A DNA stretch of 64,000 bases, from positions 460,613-524,612 of the forward strand of contig CP011213.1 of NCBI GenBank assembly GCA_001029735.1. Reading direction: 5' to 3'. Position numbers and translations under genes: made by a program. This document shows, in pieces, positions 5,765-51,253 of the stretch. The notes below the pieces were generated by a model. It did not search any database, was not told the DNA's origin, and saw nothing but the letters and a program-made list of their open reading frames with translations. Each line of letters begins with the position of its first letter. The stretch's first letter is position 1. The stretch is from Berkelbacteria bacterium GW2011_GWE1_39_12. Its GTDB lineage: Bacteria > Patescibacteriota > UBA1384 > UBA12157.

Positions 5765-5899
5765 CCTCGTCGTCATTTCAATCAGCCGTGAGCAAATTGT
5801 CATTAATTTGGCAAAATCTCACGGTTTTTTAATTTTTATGATATATTAGAATTAATAGCCAAGCTAAAGCTTGTCGCGGAATTTTATCAAGGATAAAAT

Positions 5900-6064
5900 A
5901 TGAAAACAATATCAATTCAAGAAAAACAAAACCGAATCTTCCGCAAGATGAGCGCGGAAAAAAAACTTAAAATGATGGATAGCTTTTTCCTTATTGTCAG
6001 GATGCTAATTCCATATCTGATTTATTGCCAGTGTCTAGGAAAAAATAAAAGGTTACAGAGTTAG
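5900..6064 (+). CDS. small hypothetical ORF (54 aa)
   Basis: ATG preceded by the CCAAGC/TTGTCGCGGAATTT box and an AAGGA RBS; no similarity recognised. Confidence 0.2.
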   Translation: MKTISIQEKQNRIFRKMSAEKKLKMMDSFFLIVRMLIPYLIYCQCLGKNKRLQS

Positions 6065-6210: not shown

Positions 6211-6501
6211 GTGAAAACATATTATGTTTATATAATGGCCAGTTTTAGTAGGGTTCTATATATCGGTATTACAAATGATCTAGCTCGGAGAGTTTATGAG
6301 CATAAAAACGAGCTAAATGACGGATTTACAAAAAGATATAAATGCAAGAAGTTAGTATATTTTGAGTCGTCTTCCGATGTTAATTCGATCTTGGAAAGAG
6401 AAAAGCAATTAAAAAGGTGGAGACGGGATAAGAAAATCTTTTTAATTGAGAAAGACAATTCGGAATGGAAAGATCTCTCGACTTCGCTCGAGATGACATA
6501 G
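6211..6501 (+). CDS. GIY-YIG nuclease family protein (UPF0213-like)
   Basis: YYVYIM...LYIGITNDLARRVYEH...KQLK motif typical of small GIY-YIG proteins; flanked by direct repeats. Confidence 0.75.
   Translation: MKTYYVYIMASFSRVLYIGITNDLARRVYEHKNELNDGFTKRYKCKKLVYFESSSDVNSILEREKQLKRWRRDKKIFLIEKDNSEWKDLSTSLEMT
6467..6499 (+). repeat. direct repeat copy 2 (GGAAAGATCTCTCGACTTCGCTCGAGATGACAT)
   Basis: 1 mismatch to copy 1; supplies the last codons and the stop of the GIY-YIG gene. Confidence 0.6.
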
Positions 6502-21109: not shown

Positions 21110-21165
21110 GTTGCAAGAGTTATAGTGATTACATATAATAAAGATGAATAAAAAGAGCATCAATA

Positions 21166-21240
21166 GGTAAGCTTCGCTTACCGCGGAATTTTTCCCTGGA
21201 AGGAAAAATATAGTTAAGCTGTCGATTACCGCGGAATTTT
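21166..21240 (+). promoter_or_regulatory. two tandem TTACCGCGGAATTTT boxes, each followed by a GGA(A/G)AAAATAT RBS-like segment
   Basis: Variant of the CCAAGC/TTGTCGCGGAATTT element; sits directly upstream of the 21253 ATG. Confidence 0.5.
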
Positions 21241-21252
21241 CAAGGAGAAAAT

Positions 21253-21648
21253 ATGGCAAAAGCCAAATTGCTTTTAGTTGAAGACGACGTAACTTTATCT
21301 AAAATGTATGAAAAGAAATTTAAGACCGAAGGGTATGATGTTGAAGTAGCCTATGATGGTTTAGATGGTTTAGATAAAGCAGTTAAGGGGAAACCGGATT
21401 TAGTGGTTTTGGACATCATGCTGCCAAAAATGGATGGTTTATCAGTATTTAAAAAAATGCGTAGTACTCCGGACACTTTTAAAACTCCAGTATTACTACT
21501 GACCAACTTTGATCAAGAAGATACTGTTTTTGAATGTTTCAAACTCGGGGCAGTTGATTATTTGTTAAAATCTTCAGTCACTCCAAAGCAGGTAGTAGAA
21601 AAAGTCGGTAACTTGCTTAAAGGTATCGAAGGCCCGATAACAGAGTAA
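21253..21648 (+). CDS. single-domain response regulator (receiver only)
   Basis: Fourth receiver paralogue, 131 aa. Confidence 0.85.
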   Translation: MAKAKLLLVEDDVTLSKMYEKKFKTEGYDVEVAYDGLDGLDKAVKGKPDLVVLDIMLPKMDGLSVFKKMRSTPDTFKTPVLLLTNFDQEDTVFECFKLGAVDYLLKSSVTPKQVVEKVGNLLKGIEGPITE

Positions 21649-25769: not shown

Positions 25770-26294
25770 ATGGCGAAAAATATGGCCTTTCGGGCGCGGA
25801 ATTTCAATCGAAATATAGCCCTTGGGACGCAGAATTTCCGAAGAAATATTAAATCATCGAAGGGTTTTACCCTAATCGAGATTTTGGTAGTGATGGCGAT
25901 TTTAGTTGTAATGGCCGGTTTTTCTGTTGCGAGCTTAACCTCCTTCGGCCGAAGTAGTAATATTGATGGCGATTACATGACGCTAGAATCGTCTTTAAGA
26001 CTGGCCGAAAGTAATTCACAAGCCAACTTAGGTGACAGCCAATGGGGAATTCACCTAGAAAGTAATCGGTTCACGCTTTTTAGCGGATCGACTTATAATG
26101 CTTCTGATATTGCCAATAATAAAGTAAGAACATTTTCTAACGGCGTTGTATTAAGTTGGAGCCTCGCTGACGGTGGTCAAGACATTTTGTTCAACAAAGG
26201 CAAAACCTCCACTATTAATACTGGTACGCTTACTCTTTCGGGTAGTGGCAATAGCAAGCAACTTACATTGAATGGTGAGGGCACAATTGAATAA
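25770..26294 (+). CDS. pseudopilin with unusually long (about 39 aa) leader before G-FTLIEILVV
   Basis: Prepilin motif KGFTLIEILVVMAIL. Confidence 0.65.
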   Translation: MAKNMAFRARNFNRNIALGTQNFRRNIKSSKGFTLIEILVVMAILVVMAGFSVASLTSFGRSSNIDGDYMTLESSLRLAESNSQANLGDSQWGIHLESNRFTLFSGSTYNASDIANNKVRTFSNGVVLSWSLADGGQDILFNKGKTSTINTGTLTLSGSGNSKQLTLNGEGTIE

Positions 26295-32236: not shown

Positions 32237-32264
32237 ATAATTAAGGGGCAACGGAGAAAATATG

Positions 32265-32294
32265 GCCAAGCCAAAAGCTTGTCGCGGAATTTTC
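32265..32294 (+). promoter_or_regulatory. CCAAGC-hairpin/TTGTCGCGGAATTTT box upstream of recA
   Basis: GCCAAGCCAAAAGCTTGTCGCGGAATTTTC; flanked by duplicated GGAGAAAATATGGC (32253-32266 and 32302-32315). Confidence 0.55.
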
Positions 32295-32310
32295 TCCAAA
32301 AGGAGAAAAT

Positions 32311-33456
32311 ATGGCAAATGGTGAAGACAAGGCAAAAAAAGAAGCATTAGAAATGGCTTTTTCGCAGATTGAGCGTCAGTTTGGCACTGGTGCCATTATG
32401 CGATTCGGTCAAAAAGAGAAGTTAAAAATCGATGCGATTTCGACTGGTTCGGTTTCTTTGGATTTAGCTTTAGGGGTTGGCGGTTTTCCTCGCGGCCGTA
32501 TCATTGAAATTTATGGTCCTGAAGCTTCGGGTAAAACTACTTTGGCTTTGCATGCGATCGCCGAAGCTCAGAAAAAAGGTGGCATCGCCGCTTTTGTCGA
32601 CGCTGAACATGCTTTTGATCCTGAATATGCCGCCAGAATTGGCATTAATACCGAAGAATTATTAATTTCTCAGCCGGACACAGGGGAGCAAGCATTAGAA
32701 ATTACCGAAACCTTAGTTCGCTCAAATGCTTTGGACATAATTGTCGTTGACTCTGTTGCCGCTTTGGTGCCACGCGCAGAAATCGAAGGCGAAATGGGCG
32801 ATTCAATGATGGGTGTCCAGGCAAGATTGATGAGCCAAGCTCTTCGCAAGCTTACTGGTGCCATTTCCAAAAGTAAAACCATTGTTATTTTTATTAACCA
32901 GATTCGTATGAAAATCGGCGTAATGTTTGGTAACCCTGAAACCACTGCTGGTGGTATGGCTTTGAAGTTTTATTCATCAATTAGATTAGATATTCGCCGC
33001 ACCGAGCAACTGAAAAATGGTGAAGAAATTGTTGGAAACCACACGAAAGTAAAAATTGTGAAGAATAAAGTGGCTCCACCATTCCGTATCGCTGAATTTG
33101 ATATTATGTATGGTGAAGGTATTTCCAAAACTGGTGAATTGCTGGATATCGGTGTTAAAGAAGGCATTGTCAGTAAAGCCGGTTCTTGGTATCAATTTGG
33201 CACAGAAAAACTTGGCCAAGGCAGAGAAGGCGCGAAGGAATATTTAGCTGATCACCATAAAATTGCCAAAGAAATTGAAGAATTAATTTTTGAAAAGATC
33301 GAAAAAGAAGAATCGGACGATAAGCAGGAAAAACAGGACAAGCAAGAAAAAAGAGAGAAACAGGACAAAGAGGAGAATAAGTCGGATAAATCCGAAAAGC
33401 AAGAAAAAGTTGAAAAAGCCGAGAAACCTGTTAAGGCAGAAAAAGTCGAAGAATAA
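32311..33456 (+). CDS. recA: recombinase RecA with low-complexity KQEK/DK C-terminal tail
   Basis: GPEASGKTT Walker A and full RecA core; about 45-aa repetitive Lys/Glu/Asp/Gln tail. Confidence 0.95.
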
Positions 33457-38605: not shown

Positions 38606-39898
38606 ATGAGAGAAATTCTACGCAATATGTGGCGAAGAAAGTTTCGCACGTTTTTAACTATTTTTGGCATTGTAATCGGAATGTTCGCATTCACGGTCAT
38701 GGGCTCGATGGCTTTAAAATTTAATAAAATGATTGAGGGTGGCAAAAAATACATTACGGGCCAAATTACAATTATGCCAAAAGGGACTAGCTTTACTGGC
38801 GGAGGCAGTAATTCGATGTTACCGATAGACACTTTAACTGAAATTTCCAAGGTTGAAGGCGTTCAAGCTGTCGGCGTGGGAGTTGAGTTATCTCTCGAGG
38901 AGCCGAATCCCGATGATCCGATGGGGGCAAGTATGTCTTTTGGGACACCGCCAACGATTGAGGGTATGGATTTAAACTCAAATTACGAAAATAGGAATTG
39001 GAAAACAATGGATATGAAAGAGGGGAAAATGATCGCTAAAGGAGATAGTGATGATAAAATCACCGTGGGCTACACGATTGCACTGGACAAAAATTTAAAA
39101 ACTGGCGACAAATTCAAAATTCGTGGGCGCGAATTTGAAGTGGCAGGGGTATTGGATAAGACTATGACAGGACCAGACTCATATGTTTTTATGCCGATTA
39201 CGCCGGCGCGAGAACTGCTGATTGCGTCTAATCCGTTTTTGAAATCGCTAAAAGAGCAGTCGGATAATGCTGCAAAAATCTCAGATGCTGCGTTGGCGGC
39301 AATGCCAACGGCCACACGCGAACAAATAATCAGTGCCAAATCATTTAAAGTCGACGATGTGACGACGATGGCCGGTGTTTCTTGGAAAGATGGCGCAGAT
39401 TCGGAAGTTGTCTCGAATCGGATTAAAGAACAATTTAAGGATCAGGTCTTAGTTTTATCTCCTGTTAAAATGGGTGAACAAATTGACAAGGCATCAGTTA
39501 TGTTTAATGCAATAATCTTAGGCATGGCATTACTAGCATTGATCGTAGGTAGCTTTTCAATTATTAACACGATGGTGATGAGTATTTCTGAGCGCACTAA
39601 AGAGATTGGGATTAAAAAAGCTTTAGGTGCTTCTGGTTGGTCAATCGCTCGAGAATATACATTAGAAGCTGGAATCATCGGCTTACTTGGTGGCGCTATT
39701 GGCATGGGTCTAGGCGTTTTAACTGCGGTTCTACTCAATCACAAATTAGCGGAAAAGGGAGCGGAAATCTTTTTAATACAAAACAACTTTCTTGCCGGCG
39801 TGATTATTTTCTCCTTTGCTATTGGTATTTTCGCGGGAATTATTCCAGCAATGCGGGCGGCAAAGATGAAAGTTGTAGAAGCGATAAGGGAGCTATAG
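38606..39898 (+). CDS. ABC transporter permease, FtsX/MacB type
   Basis: N-terminal TM, large periplasmic domain, C-terminal 3-TM FtsX-like domain. Confidence 0.8.
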   Translation: MREILRNMWRRKFRTFLTIFGIVIGMFAFTVMGSMALKFNKMIEGGKKYITGQITIMPKGTSFTGGGSNSMLPIDTLTEISKVEGVQAVGVGVELSLEEPNPDDPMGASMSFGTPPTIEGMDLNSNYENRNWKTMDMKEGKMIAKGDSDDKITVGYTIALDKNLKTGDKFKIRGREFEVAGVLDKTMTGPDSYVFMPITPARELLIASNPFLKSLKEQSDNAAKISDAALAAMPTATREQIISAKSFKVDDVTTMAGVSWKDGADSEVVSNRIKEQFKDQVLVLSPVKMGEQIDKASVMFNAIILGMALLALIVGSFSIINTMVMSISERTKEIGIKKALGASGWSIAREYTLEAGIIGLLGGAIGMGLGVLTAVLLNHKLAEKGAEIFLIQNNFLAGVIIFSFAIGIFAGIIPAMRAAKMKVVEAIREL

Positions 39899-39930
39899 CC
39901 GGAATTTTCTAGAAAGAAAATATAAAAAAT

Positions 39931-40608
39931 ATGAAAAATATAATAATTGGTAAAAATTTAAAAAAATGTTATAAGATGAGTAAAACCAATACGGTTAATG
40001 CTCTTAATGGTGTCGATGTTGAAATCCAAGAGGGGGATTTTACTGCTATTGTCGGTCCGTCTGGTTGTGGTAAATCGACTTTGCTGCATATTTTAGGCTT
40101 ACTGGATCGTCCTGATTCTGGTGAACTTTCTATCGACGAGATTGATGTTTCAAAGATGAAGGAGCGACAAGCCTATAAACTTCGGGCTAAAAAAATTGGT
40201 TTTGTCTTTCAGGGTTTCAATCTCATTCCCACTTTGACCGCATTGGAAAATATTATGCTCGCCGGCCAATATGGCGGTTTAAAGCCAAAAGCCCGTAAAG
40301 AAAAAGCGTTGGCGTTACTGGAAAAAATGGGATTGAAAGACCGAGCTAATCATAAACCAAATGAACTTTCTGGTGGTCAACAACAACGCATTGCGTTAGC
40401 GAGAGCGCTAGTCAATGATCCGTCTTTAATTTTAGCCGATGAGCCGACAGGAGAGTTAGACAGCAAAACATCCTTGGAAATTATCGAAATGCTAAAAAAA
40501 TTGAATAAAGAGGAAAACAGAACATTTATAATTGTGACACATAACAATGAAGTAGCTGAAGCTTGCAAAAAGACAATTAGACTCAGAGACGGCAAAAACG
40601 ATAATTAA
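39931..40608 (+). CDS. ABC transporter ATP-binding protein (MacB/LolD-like)
   Basis: Walker A GPSGCGKST, signature LSGGQQQR, Walker B LILADE. Confidence 0.85.
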   Translation: MKNIIIGKNLKKCYKMSKTNTVNALNGVDVEIQEGDFTAIVGPSGCGKSTLLHILGLLDRPDSGELSIDEIDVSKMKERQAYKLRAKKIGFVFQGFNLIPTLTALENIMLAGQYGGLKPKARKEKALALLEKMGLKDRANHKPNELSGGQQQRIALARALVNDPSLILADEPTGELDSKTSLEIIEMLKKLNKEENRTFIIVTHNNEVAEACKKTIRLRDGKNDN

Positions 40609-40623
40609 AATTTGGAGAGCAAA

Positions 40624-40694
40624 TAGCCAAGCTACCACTTGTCGCGGAAATTTAAGGATTAAATTATAATTGGCAAAAGCCAATTTCGGAAATT
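40624..40694 (+). promoter_or_regulatory. CCAAGC/TTGTCGCGGAAATTT box followed by tandem duplication CGGAAATTTAAGGATTAAATTAT
   Basis: Fourth member of the box family; duplicated RBS-proximal segment. Confidence 0.5.
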
Positions 40695-40707
40695 TAAGGA
40701 TTAAATT

Positions 40708-41127
40708 ATGAAAAAAAGAGTTGAGACAAAATTTGGCTACGTTGTAGTAATTATTGTTAATATTATTCTTTTTTATATTTTTAACCATTTGCTCTTGTGG
40801 CATATACCTTTTTTACTCCAAAGCTGGAACGCCCCGCTTGGAATCATAAATATTCAAATTTTAGGGACTATTACTGCGACCTTAATTTATTTGATCTTTG
40901 ACCCCTCTTGGTTTAAAGCGCTTACAAAAACAATCTTAAACATTGTCAGTTTTCTTTTCATGCTGACTATTTATTATGTATTTCCGTTTAACTTTTCAGT
41001 TTATTCACACCTTCCTTGGTTGGAAAACACGGTTAAAATATTAATTATAATAAGTTTAGCGCTTACAACGGTTGGGATTTTGGTCGAGTTTATCAAAATT
41101 TTTGTTAAAGAAAAGAAGGATAAATGA
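40708..41127 (+). CDS. hypothetical membrane protein
   Basis: 139 aa with 4 hydrophobic helices. Confidence 0.35.
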   Translation: MKKRVETKFGYVVVIIVNIILFYIFNHLLLWHIPFLLQSWNAPLGIINIQILGTITATLIYLIFDPSWFKALTKTILNIVSFLFMLTIYYVFPFNFSVYSHLPWLENTVKILIIISLALTTVGILVEFIKIFVKEKKDK

Positions 41128-45757: not shown

Positions 45758-46325
45758 ACCCTAAAAATCCTCCGTCATTGTGCCATACTAGCGTATAATA
45801 ATTATATGGATAAGAGAACATATAAAGATCGTGCACAATATAACATTCAAGCAGTCGCGAAGCGAAGAAGAAAGATCAAAGCGATGGCAATTGAATACAA
45901 AGGCGGAAAGTGTAGTATCTGTGGTTATAATAAATATGCCGGCGCTTTAGATTTTCACCATATAGACGAATCAACCAAAAAGTTTGATTTATCTACCAAG
46001 GGTCTTACTAGATCATGGGAAAGGACTAAAACCGAGATAGATAAGTGCATATTGGTTTGTGCCAATTGCCACAGAGAAATACACGCTGGATTAGTGCAGC
46101 TTCCCGTGGAAACACGGGTTGAAAAATAAGGTTAATTGCCCCACAAGGGGTCCCGCGTAGCTTTACGCGAAGTGGGATCGGGAAGCCCTGAGTTTTGTTC
46201 AGGGTAATCCGCAGCCAAGCTTCGATGAAAGTCGTTGAAGGTTCAGAGACTATACGCCTTAGGCCGAAACGTAAAGCCGTCGGTTATGAGATAGTCCACC
46301 CTCTTAAGTAATTAGGAGACACGTG
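45758..46325 (+). mobile_element. group I intron in the tRNA anticodon loop, carrying an HNH homing endonuclease ORF
   Basis: Core sequences GTTCAGAGACTATA (P7 5' / R) at 46234-46247 and GAGATAGTCC (P7 3' / S) at 46285-46294. Terminal G immediately before exon 2. ORF sits in the 5' peripheral region. Confidence 0.7.
45806..46129 (+). CDS. HNH homing endonuclease (intron-encoded)
   Basis: CSICG...HH.D......N....CANCHREIH HNH motif; 107 aa. Confidence 0.75.
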   Translation: MDKRTYKDRAQYNIQAVAKRRRKIKAMAIEYKGGKCSICGYNKYAGALDFHHIDESTKKFDLSTKGLTRSWERTKTEIDKCILVCANCHREIHAGLVQLPVETRVEK

Positions 46326-46574: not shown

Positions 46575-47573
46575 ATGTCCAAATTTATTCCAGGATTAGA
46601 GCTAAGCGAACGTTTCTTTTTTGAAGCAGTAAAACCAATTCTTGACAAAGAACTACCTAACCTAAAATATTCAGCTGGTCTCATCGGCTATGGCTCAGAA
46701 GTATTAGGTTTTGATACTGAAGAATCAACAGATCACCATTGGGGACCGCGATTCTTGATGTTTTTGGAAGAAGAAAATTTTGATGCCCAGAAAGTTGAAA
46801 TCGACAAAATCCTAAGCGAAAAATTGCCACATAATTTTCTGGGATTCAGTACTAATTATACCGAAGGCGATAAAATAGGAGTTCGTCATCCTGAGCCAAT
46901 AACGAGTGGTCCAATTAGGCACTTTGTGGAATTTTACACGATAAAATCCTATTTAGAAAAACGCTTAAATATAAGTTCAGTAGAATCTCTTACGAACGTC
47001 GATTGGATAAAATTTCCCGAACAAAGATTACTAGAGACTATTTCCGGTAAAGTATTTATTGACGGTCTTGGCAAATTAGAAGAAATGAGAGAGGCACTTC
47101 ATTACTACCCGAAGGATGTATGGCTATATCGATTAGCAAGCGAGTGGCAAAAGATCAGTGACATTGAAGCTTTTGTCGGACGGTGCGGAGATGTGGATGA
47201 CGATCTTGGTTCTCGTCTTGTTGCGAGTGATATTATTAAATCTATTATGAATCTCTGTTTTCTAATGGAGAGAAGCTATATCCCTTATTCGAAATGGTTT
47301 GGTAGTGGTTTCAAAAGATTAAAAAGTTCAGAAGTTTTGCTGCCAGTTCTTATGAATATAATGACTTCTCCAGACTGGAAAGAGCGGGAATCGAATTTAT
47401 CGCAAGCTTACAAAATAATCGCTCATATGCATAACAATCTTAATATTACGGAAAAAATGTCCGAAGAAGTCGAATCTTACTACGGTCGACCATATTTGGT
47501 AATTCGAGCTGATAAATTTGCGGAAAAGATAATGGATCAAATACCGGAAGGCAGCAGAGAGGAAATGAAATGA
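46575..47573 (+). CDS. nucleotidyltransferase-fold protein
   Basis: GYGSEVLGFDTEESTD matches the Pol-beta-type NTase motif hG[GS]x9-13 D x [DE]. Confidence 0.45.
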   Translation: MSKFIPGLELSERFFFEAVKPILDKELPNLKYSAGLIGYGSEVLGFDTEESTDHHWGPRFLMFLEEENFDAQKVEIDKILSEKLPHNFLGFSTNYTEGDKIGVRHPEPITSGPIRHFVEFYTIKSYLEKRLNISSVESLTNVDWIKFPEQRLLETISGKVFIDGLGKLEEMREALHYYPKDVWLYRLASEWQKISDIEAFVGRCGDVDDDLGSRLVASDIIKSIMNLCFLMERSYIPYSKWFGSGFKRLKSSEVLLPVLMNIMTSPDWKERESNLSQAYKIIAHMHNNLNITEKMSEEVESYYGRPYLVIRADKFAEKIMDQIPEGSREEMK

Positions 47574-51052: not shown

Positions 51053-51253
51053 TTAACCTTACCCCAGTACTCATAATCGTCCAGTATTGTTATAATTTTC
51101 TTTGTTAAGAAAATTTCGGAATTTTTCTGAAGGAAAAATATAAGCGAAGCTTGCAACTCGCCGTCGCTCGTTATAAGCGAAGCTTGCAACTCGCCGTCGC
51201 TCGTTATAAGCGAAGCTTGCAACTCGCCGTTGCTCGTTATAAGCGAAGCTTGA
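51053..51253 (+). repeat. intergenic repeat module, then a tandem array of 3.4 copies of the 33-bp unit AAGCGAAGCTTGCAACTCGCCGTCGCTCGTTAT (51143-51253)
   Basis: Unit copies at 51143, 51176 and 51209, plus a partial fourth; a single copy of the unit at 48655-48687. Confidence 0.75.

Follow-up and report, generated by a model that had tools for sequence, protein, structure and literature searches.

A dispersed two-hairpin unit beside start codons in Candidatus Berkelbacteria, a candidate cis-acting RNA leader cassette

We describe a repeated unit of 40–50 nt in a 64,000-nucleotide stretch of contig CP011213.1 of Berkelbacteria bacterium GW2011_GWE1_39_12 (positions 460,613 to 524,612; hereafter the window, G+C 39%), where it stands immediately upstream of recA and several other genes. 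Comparison of its copies shows a transcribed, strand-specific and structurally constrained module, in which a predicted second hairpin occludes the Shine-Dalgarno (SD) sequence and abuts the start codon, and in which two invariant, predicted single-stranded segments, AUAG and CGCGGA, flank a hairpin of free sequence. We put at about even the chance that the unit works in cis as an RNA leader cassette, governing translation or the stability of the mRNA, and that it spreads by copying; equally balanced, in our view, is the proposition that roughly one-tenth of Candidatus Berkelbacteria genes have it as their 5′ leader or intercistronic spacer.

Results

Anatomy of the unit and its copies in the window

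Alignment of the window copies with copies elsewhere (sampled loci are designated by L-numbers) gave a single plan: AUAG, hairpin 1, (Y)CGCGGA, hairpin 2 and AUG, in 40–50 nt. Hairpin 1 has a stem of 5–10 bp of free sequence and a loop of 3–6 nt; its commonest stem is CAAGC/GCUUG, and others are GUAAGC/GCUUAC, UUGGC/GCCAA, GGUUAAU/AUUAACC, UCUAGC/GCUAGC and the 10-bp AACAUUAGAA/UUCUAAUGUU. All units carry AUAG or AUGG 5′ of hairpin 1, AUAG being nearly invariant; this tetranucleotide differs from the GTAG of repetitive extragenic palindromic (REP) elements, and the stem is not family-constant. The linker (Y)CGCGGA between the hairpins is single-stranded, and its GGA, which lies outside a loop, is followed 10–18 nt on by a second GGA in the SD. 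Hairpin 2 opens on the second A of GGAA and closes at position −1 relative to the start codon; its 5′ arm, A(A/U)UUU plus pyrimidines, pairs with the unit's own purine-rich SD and A-rich spacer. The unit ends (AG... and ...TAT) are not inverted repeats, the two hairpins being separate internal structures. Because ordinary genes of the window have AGGAGG-type SD sequences with varied spacers, and the contexts RRAAAAU-AUG and UUAAAUU-AUG are found only at its unit-bearing genes, the unit brings its own ribosome-binding site.

The 81 units with a recognisable 3′ end close on AUG (46) or AUA (35). Within arrays every unit except the last ends AUAU-AG, not AUAU-G, and a unit's opening AUAG thus corresponds to the start codon at the close of a final unit. 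Where no start codon closes the unit, in L092, L148, L163 and L193, a common hairpin-2 variant without SD is often present, AAAUUUC-UGAC-GAAAUU, which suggests that internal and orphan units may include a second, non-initiating class.

The window holds nine units at five loci and two units without hairpin 1, all on the gene strand. The exact string CGCGGAATTT occurs five times, 5/5 on the plus strand, as compared to a mean of 0.36 in dinucleotide-preserving shuffles, none of 100 of which reached five. A covariance model of 38 positions (R1) recovers five window sites at E 7e-9 to 3e-6, and all of its matches with E<2 are on the plus strand. The copies are as follows.

5855–5902, plus strand: U1, a single unit; AUAG 5855–5858; hairpin 1 stem 5860–5864/5869–5873; CGCGGAA 5875–5881; hairpin 2 (computed fold) 5881–5888/5892–5899, AUUUUAUC/GAUAAAAU, with the SD AAGGA within loop and 3′ arm; AUG 5900 of a 54-amino-acid open reading frame (ORF); R1 52.6 bits, E 6.8e-9.
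21163–21212, plus strand: U2a, internal unit of a two-unit array; AUAG 21163–21166; CGCGGAA 21182–21188; hairpin 1 GUAAGC/GCUUAC and hairpin 2 AUUUUUCC/GGAAAAAU by folding; 3′ end AUAU followed by the AG of the next unit, hence without a start codon; R1 40.4 bits.
21210–21255, plus strand: U2b, final unit of that array; AUAG 21210–21213; CGCGGAA 21230–21236; hairpin 1 decayed; hairpin 2 AUUUUC/GAAAAU with AAGGA in the loop; AUG 21253 starts a response-regulator gene (Pfam Response_reg), the first of a type IV pilus cluster; R1 43.9 bits.
25782–25850, plus strand: U3a and U3b, degenerate 33-nt units; cores CGCGGAA at 25795 and CGCAGAA at 25828; hairpin 1 short or lost; Tandem Repeats Finder period 33, 2.3 copies; R1 21.0 and 15.4 bits.
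32253–32313, plus strand: U4, at recA; upstream partial period GGAGAAAAUAUGGC at 32253–32266 with AUG 32262 intact; hairpin 1 stem 32267–32271/32277–32281; CGCGGAA 32283–32289; hairpin 2 AUUUUCUCC (32289–32297)/GGAGAAAAU (32302–32310); recA AUG 32311; R1 50.2 bits.
39895–39933, plus strand: unit without hairpin 1, AUAG-C-CGGAAUUUU, hairpin 2 AUUUUCU/AGAAAAU, then AUAUAAAAAAUAUG; the UAG of AUAG (39896–39898) is the stop codon of an FtsX-like gene, and AUG 39931 begins an ABC ATPase gene (Pfam ABC_tran).
40623–40667, plus strand: U5a, internal unit; AUAG 40623–40626; CGCGGAA 40643–40649; hairpin 1 CAAG/CUUG; hairpin 2 AAUUUAA/UUAAAUU with GGA in the loop; 3′ end AUUAUAA; R1 40.6 bits.
40668–40710, plus strand: U5b, final unit, from pattern match and fold; hairpin 1 UUGGC/GCCAA, a wholly different stem; linker variant UUUCGGA; hairpin 2 as in U5a; AUG 40708 of a 139-amino-acid membrane-protein ORF.
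51114–51142, plus strand: unit-like remnant without hairpin 1, UUUCGGAAUUUUUC-UGAA-GGAAAAAUAUAAG; no start codon adjoins.

A previous sequence-only reading of this DNA had reported a hairpin box upstream of four start codons. Direct reading confirms the box at all four sites, together with the exact 14-nt direct repeat GGAGAAAATATGGC that brackets it at recA (32253–32266 and 32302–32315), the tandem duplications (21163–21255 and 40623–40710) and the CAAGC/GCTTG hairpin, now seen to covary as hairpin 1. Its figure of four copies was an undercount, missing the locus at 25782–25850 and the units without hairpin 1 at 39895–39933 and 51114–51142.

Covariation and folding of the two hairpins

In an alignment of 63 sequences, 87.3% of hairpin 1 cells are paired as compared to 76.2% in shuffles, with 0/500 shuffles reaching the observed values, although most seeds came from a pattern that fixes CAAG...CTTG and the informative variation is that of the window and of extra copies in the fetched loci. 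Double-sided changes occur in 6/6 pairs, and shifting the 3′ partner lowers pairing to 21–44%. Hairpin 2 lay outside all search patterns except for its outer AAAAU. It reaches at least 4 bp in 81/84 units, with a mean stem of 7.3 bp and loops mostly of 3–5 nt; at depth 2, A-U (39) alternates with U-A (36) and pairing is 92.6%, against 50% when arms are shuffled among units, and at depths 6 and 7 it is 86–88% against 52–53%, with 0/500 shuffles as high. Single-sequence folds recover both hairpins, the most stable being the recA leader (−19.8 kcal/mol, z −3.1). Hairpin 2 invariably has A-U or U-A at its base and a stability of about −2 to −6 kcal/mol at 37°C; the constancy of this AU base suggests that easy melting may be required.

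Such low stability, with AUUUU(Y)n pairing with (R)nAAAAU including the SD as a fourU sequence requires, would also be expected of an intrinsic RNA switch that needs no protein, in which hairpin 2 would be a thermometer-like zipper (fourU-like) or a structured insulator and hairpin 1 would guard the 5′ end against RNase J. With an adjoining −10 box, hairpin 1 begins 4 nt into the predicted transcript; an RNase J gene is present in the relative L199; and 5′-proximal hairpins and SD-like stabilisers are familiar from Bacillus. We nonetheless consider this explanation unlikely, for it leaves the invariant CGCGGA and AUAG unexplained, and units also lie internally or between cistrons, remote from any 5′ end.

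At recA and in the L153 family the 5′ flank can also pair with the anti-SD arm over 9–11 bp, enclosing hairpin 1 and freeing the real ribosome-binding site, and the mean helix length over the units is 4.14 as compared to 3.64 in controls (z ∼4). These values would suit a riboswitch aptamer for a small ligand or ion, with the upstream decoy copy of the SD competing for the anti-SD arm. This, however, appears highly improbable: the alternative pairing is found in a minority of units only, the genes have no common pathway, the conserved unpaired part is just ∼10 nt, and Rfam searches of the recA leader at E<10 returned no family (best match E 1.6). A universal alternative helix between the 5′ flank and the anti-SD arm, like the P1 of a riboswitch, was rejected since its significance came from that minority.

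Position of the unit in the transcript and beside genes

At L148 (1088–1400) a cobalamin riboswitch (Rfam, 43 bits) and a terminator hairpin are followed by two units and then by the AUG of a 225-amino-acid membrane-protein gene; because a promoter there would bypass the riboswitch, the units are transcribed leader and not promoters. The genome encodes a standard RpoD, and a sigma-70-like promoter, TTGCAA-17-TATAAT, lies 5′ of the response-regulator array at 21111–21139. More generally, 23% of first units have a TANNNT box at −12 to −7, counted from the A of AUAG, as compared to ∼4% at other offsets, and in U1, by direct reading, a −10-like box (TGnTATATT) ends 7 nt 5′ of AUAG. For first units with such a box, the unit is probably the entire 5′ untranslated region, hairpin 1 then beginning 4 nt downstream of the predicted 5′ terminus.

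That the unit acts instead at the DNA level, as a promoter or transcription-factor binding site, is largely refuted and retains almost no credence. A consensus scan does find a promoter-like TTGTCG-17-TAAAAT inside U1, and arrays 5′ of highly expressed genes would suit tandem promoters. However, the match in U1 ends at the start codon and so cannot serve that gene, since transcripts would begin inside it; units differ widely in how far the TTGTCG-like hexamer stands from their AAWTAT end; stems covary rather than hold a fixed sequence; and units are found 3′ of a riboswitch terminator and with separate upstream promoters. A sigma-70 promoter was rejected on the varying spacing, the contact of the −10-like hexamer with the AUG and the units that follow a riboswitch terminator. 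The sequence-only reading had named coincidence with mapped promoter −35/−10 elements as part of what would count against it; what we find is a variable spacing and a −10-like hexamer that ends at the AUG.

Among non-redundant arrays, 47/70 abut a start codon, and arrays are head-to-tail only, with no inverted REP-like doublets seen. By NCBIfam the downstream products include ribosomal proteins L3, L16, S17, L31, S6, L32, S15 and L34, RsmH, valyl-tRNA synthetase (ValRS), PheT, CTP synthase (PyrG), MurF, enolase, a GalT-like enzyme and glycerol-3-phosphate cytidylyltransferase (TagD); Pfam adds RecA, the response regulator and a prepilin, and L11 and a second pilin were recognised by their N-terminal sequences. 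No pathway is common to them (translation, cell wall, glycolysis, pili and recombination are all represented), and they look like housekeeping genes that are first in their operon or highly expressed. The S10 ribosomal-protein operon of L137 contains three units, 5′ of rplC, rplP and rpsQ. The largest arrays read directly comprise five units 5′ of rpmH (L190) and four 5′ of valS (L037), for a range of 1–5 units, and L176 has 2.6 perfect 40-nt copies; the stringent automatic count split some arrays.

Two other roles for the sequence were considered and rejected. A long upstream ORF stops exactly at the UAG of AUAG in 7/64 first units only, too few for a general stop codon, and a coding repeat disagrees with hairpin-1 length steps that are not multiples of three and with unit periods of 33–49 nt. 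Non-coding RNA genes were looked for 3′ of orphan units and none was found. Orphan units in L193 (plus strand, after 562) and L195 (plus strand, after 1036) are followed by a common conserved stretch, AAGCCGCACGTGCATCTAAATGGAGCCTGTTAA, which may be another small element or RNA.

Selection on resident copies and their mobility

In seven orthologous pairs the encoded proteins are 48–91% identical and third positions at conserved residues 43–70% identical (mostly 43–55%), while AUAG and CGCGGAA are identical at 77/77 positions and differences in hairpin 1 are mostly in the loop. Hairpin 2 changes in a compensatory manner, from UUUUAUC/GAUAAAA in U1 to UUUUUCU/AGAAAAA in its L154 orthologue. In the unit after nusG, compared between L134 and L171, 17/17 nt of hairpin 2 are identical as against 52% of synonymous sites, and in the glycosyltransferase-like orthologues of L153, L164, L174 and L143 CTTGTCGCGGAAATTTC and ATAG are unchanged and third codon positions have diverged. 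This pattern argues for function at each locus, as neutral decay of a selfish insertion would not give it.

Units are also present or absent at otherwise corresponding sites. The recA unit is missing from the orthologous site of four relatives (L196–L199; RecA identity 89, 86, 84 and 79%), L198 reading ...ttaggggcagaaaggttttATGTCAAATGATGAC where the window reads ...taaggggcaacGGAGAAAATATGGC[35 nt]GGAGAAAATATGGCAAATGGTGAAGAC, so that the comparison of orthologous loci proposed in the sequence-only reading did yield empty sites. In the reverse case, L198 carries a unit in the interval that separates a DUF4082 gene from a pilin gene, and this unit is missing in the window (28254) and in L197. Flanking direct repeats scoring at least 11 accompany 10/67 arrays as compared to 0.9% of mismatched controls, some of the scored repeats being unrecognised upstream units. 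The duplications are 14, 17, 23 or ∼27 nt long, as in L180, where ATGCCGAAGAAAAATAT is repeated (17 nt), and most units have none.

One earlier suggestion, a tiny insertion element that targets and duplicates RBS-ATG sites, is therefore borne out in its insertion behaviour (the two unoccupied sites and the enriched flanking repeats) and is not supported as a transposon duplicating a fixed target, given the variable or absent duplications. Exit invariably occurs at an AAWTAT string, which resembles the 3′ end of the unit itself, and the SD and spacer are supplied by the unit. The relatives' native recA ribosome-binding sites (GAAAGG with TTTT, ATTAC or AATTT) are unlike both 14-mer copies; because SD and spacer differ in this way, we infer that at recA ∼1.3 periods of a donor array took the place of the native ribosome-binding site, rather than a native target being duplicated, although homogenisation at recA may have followed. 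Likewise, the upstream copy in gene-specific duplications (L180, L146/L152 and the L153 family) always ends AAWTAT, as units do, from which we infer homology-guided copying, by template switching or illegitimate recombination, as the probable route of spread rather than a transposase that makes a fixed staggered cut. By direct reading, an intact SD and an AUG (32262) in the upstream copy at recA open a 20-codon upstream ORF overlapping the recA start; in most units the start codon position of the upstream copy is AUAG, with the start codon removed and a stop created.

A selfish miniature DNA repeat of the REP or miniature inverted-repeat transposable element (MITE) type must be weighed here. 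An enzyme of the host or of the element would recognise hairpin 1 with AUAG/CGCGGAA on single-stranded DNA and insert at AAWTAT, the start-codon position being a target preference. The insertion polymorphism at orthologous sites, the enriched flanking duplications, tandem arrays of identical units, orphan copies distant from start codons and the resemblance of a tetranucleotide plus hairpin to the REP layout would all follow. We nevertheless regard it as rather doubtful, as copies within a genome are not near-identical but differ in stems and loops with the core kept, orthologous copies hold the core with synonymous sites near saturation while hairpin 2 compensates, duplication length is variable, and neither terminal inverted repeats nor inverted REP-like doublets are seen. 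In the ∼640 kb of sampled DNA tblastn found no IS200/IS605-type TnpA (IS608 query), nor CsrA, Hfq, CspA or KhpA; these are weak negatives. The other earlier suggestion, a hairpin module that spreads by duplication, fits best, in view of the covarying hairpins, the purifying selection and the transcribed leaders; it had overlooked the conserved AUAG and the burial of the SD by hairpin 2.

Several gene-specific duplications have features of their own. In L146 (8940–9060) and L152 (minus strand, ∼3642 in oriented coordinates) the unit is flanked on both sides by a galT-like gene's first 23 nt; the copies differ synonymously only (CTT AGA vs TTA AGG; TTA CGT vs CTT AGA), and the upstream copy retains its SD and ATG, as would be expected either of an upstream mini-ORF under selection or of one copy derived from a diverged homologue by recombination. 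In four species (L153, L164, L174 and L143) an upstream relic ORF, MK(K)IS(I/V)LEII, terminates within the AUAG of the unit; pairing between the 3′ part of this ORF and the anti-SD arm is possible (11 bp at three of the four loci), L143 covarying with CC opposite GG, and the hairpin-2 loop of the L153 family keeps ACUAU, complementary to AUAG.

Units of the window pilin locus have decayed. U3a and U3b lie in frame within a 26-codon extension of the predicted leader peptide of a prepilin ORF (25770–26294, after pilC), which has Pfam N_methyl at residues 28–51; they fold no better than shuffles, and the expected start-codon position is AUU (25848). Prepilin translation would start either at the upstream AUG, reading through domesticated units, or at AUU.

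Distribution

A scan of species-representative genomes with our first pattern was too loose, most of its 112 loci being chance matches in unrelated phyla, and these were reused as controls. Full units in that scan were in metagenome-assembled genomes (MAGs) labelled Patescibacteria or “Ca. Saccharibacteria.” In one MAG with the latter label PheT is identical to that of Berkelbacteria bacterium GW2011_GWB1_38_5, and the label is thus loose; all nameable hosts of units are Berkelbacteria. The RecA of the window itself is 100% identical to a protein assigned to Candidatus Berkelbacteria by NCBI and UniRef. A more specific metagenome scan gave 74 loci, ∼60 of them with true units. Over 555 kb of Berkelbacteria-like loci R1 made 103 matches; over 624 kb of control loci it made none. 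Each control locus has a partial exact pattern match, and among the controls are a rumen Saccharibacteria MAG and a Moraniibacteriota MAG. Viral contigs gave chance matches only. As far as these scans show, the unit is specific to Candidatus Berkelbacteria.

At gathering thresholds, Rfam 15 finds only a tRNA and a group I intron in the window. The intron match (46096–46318, RF00028, 55.5 bits) has no tRNA or rRNA host detected nearby, and is flanked by a 107-amino-acid ORF without a Pfam hit and a DUF4037 ORF (46575–47573). A free-standing GIY-YIG nuclease ORF at 6211–6501 (Pfam E 2.5e-14) lies ∼300 nt 3′ of the 54-amino-acid ORF of U1, and a 33-nt × 3.5 tandem repeat (TATAAGCGAAGCTTGCAACTCGCCGTCGCTCGT, 98% matches) at 51139–51252 is directly 3′ of the remnant at 51114–51142. 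In L197 (7393–8046 and 11108–12522) an AbiEii gene is between recA and recX, and a diversity-generating retroelement (bAvd plus reverse transcriptase) is nearby, with a leader unit 5′ of bAvd.

Discussion

If the unit is a cis-acting leader cassette, initiation would occur only once the weak AU-rich hairpin 2 opens, and the cassette would thereby set or gate the rate of translation initiation. Hairpin 1, AUAG and CGCGGA would form the recognition surface of a hypothetical trans-acting factor (an RNA-binding protein, an RNase or the 30S subunit are candidates) that shifts the hairpin 2 equilibrium or protects the mRNA 5′ end. The spread is shown in part: cassettes would reach new genes by copying at AAWUAU homology, replacing the native ribosome-binding site; copying would sometimes duplicate a gene's first codons and would be followed by local multiplication in tandem, the start codons of upstream copies usually being silenced to AUAG. 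As to the direction of control, SD sequestration hints at repression, and the large arrays at ribosomal-protein genes hint, by analogy with 5′ stabilisers, at a positive or protective role.

Several observations weigh against a leader cassette of this kind. Arrays that do not abut a start codon are a sizeable minority (23/70), some of them located after a stop codon or before a terminator, and burial of the SD seems odd for ribosomal-protein genes, which bear the largest arrays. The folds of U1 and of two arrays gain modestly over shuffles (z −1.3 to −1.5), and the excess of G.U pairs in hairpin 2 (17, all 5′U-3′G, as compared to 9 A.C) is a weak pointer to the sense RNA. The trans-acting factor is hypothetical, and presence or absence at orthologous sites with flanking duplications would fit a selfish repeat too. 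We can offer only tentatively, as possible but less than probable, the larger proposal that a large share of Berkelbacteria housekeeping genes (ribosomal proteins, tRNA ligases, cell wall, pili and recA) are under one portable initiation cassette read by a dedicated global factor at hairpin 1 and CGCGGA, with genes joining or leaving this post-transcriptional regulon as the cassette is copied or lost. If true, the cassette would represent a regulatory RNA module mobile by recombination, a kind undescribed in any cellular lineage.

Known dispersed repeats resemble the unit in part. REP elements and bacterial interspersed mosaic elements (BIMEs) of enterobacteria and pseudomonads, with their REP-associated tyrosine transposases (RAYTs), are likewise short (20–65 nt) dispersed extragenic units of many copies in which a tetranucleotide precedes an imperfect hairpin, and REPs affect mRNA stability. 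REPs, however, are mostly located after genes, often as inverted pairs, with a family-specific and conserved stem and neither SD nor start codon, whereas the Berkelbacteria units are co-oriented direct repeats that abut the downstream start codon, with free stems and with the SD buried in a second hairpin. Correia/NEMIS elements of Neisseria, BOX, RUP and ERIC are also small dispersed repeats upstream of genes, co-transcribed, altering expression or processing, and present or absent among relatives. They are 100–150 bp or longer, with terminal inverted repeats, a fixed TA duplication and both orientations, in contrast to a unit of 40–50 nt that lacks terminal inverted repeats, has a variable duplication or none and, unlike Correia elements and MITEs, is fused to a start codon.

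The nearest functional analogies appear to be SD-sequestering leaders and the promoter-early stem-loop (PeSL) cassettes of T4-type phages. In fourU and ROSE thermometers and in riboswitch expression platforms a U or pyrimidine run pairs with the SD and start region, and the STAB-SD 5′ stabilisers of Bacillus are SD-like leader sequences without a start codon. Such leaders are single-locus devices, with no hairpin-plus-CGCGGA module, neither dispersed nor tandem, and are not known to occur genome-wide before ribosomal-protein genes. PeSLs are repeated before many ORFs and are thought to spread or shuffle genes by recombination between copies; they too combine a short expression signal with a stem-loop but are phage promoters, whereas the unit belongs to a cellular lineage and is transcribed as a leader that brings its own ribosome-binding site.

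Comparison extended to other systems. Type III toxin-antitoxin loci (ToxI-like) have tandem repeats of 34–45 nt, a terminator and an endoribonuclease toxin, while the arrays here precede rpmH, valS, rpmE and murF. CsrA/RsmA targets have at least two GGA motifs, one over the SD and ideally in hairpin loops; of the two GGAs of the unit, one is in the SD and the other, in the linker, is outside a loop. A K-turn, hammerhead, DNA-uptake sequence, CodY box and 16S complementarity do not seem to fit the sequences. The TAACTGA direct-repeat sets of Beggiatoaceae and cyanobacteria, which are lineage-specific, lie upstream of many unrelated genes and have been proposed as a post-transcriptional network (PMC4679880), are 7-nt and unstructured, whereas the units are 40–50 nt, structured and fused to the initiation region. 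We would class the unit as a dispersed structured regulatory repeat or cis-regulatory leader, for which full-text literature searches found no description of the motif.

Almost nothing is known, to our knowledge, of gene regulation in the Candidate Phyla Radiation, whose tiny genomes have few regulators. One leader module before about one-tenth of the genes, ribosomal-protein operons included, would amount to simple global control of translation, and would illustrate clearly how a regulatory RNA can spread from gene to gene by copying. As these bacteria become amenable to genetics, the cassette would offer a ready native expression element; it would also be a lineage marker, and would explain mis-called starts and upstream mini-ORFs in Berkelbacteria annotations.

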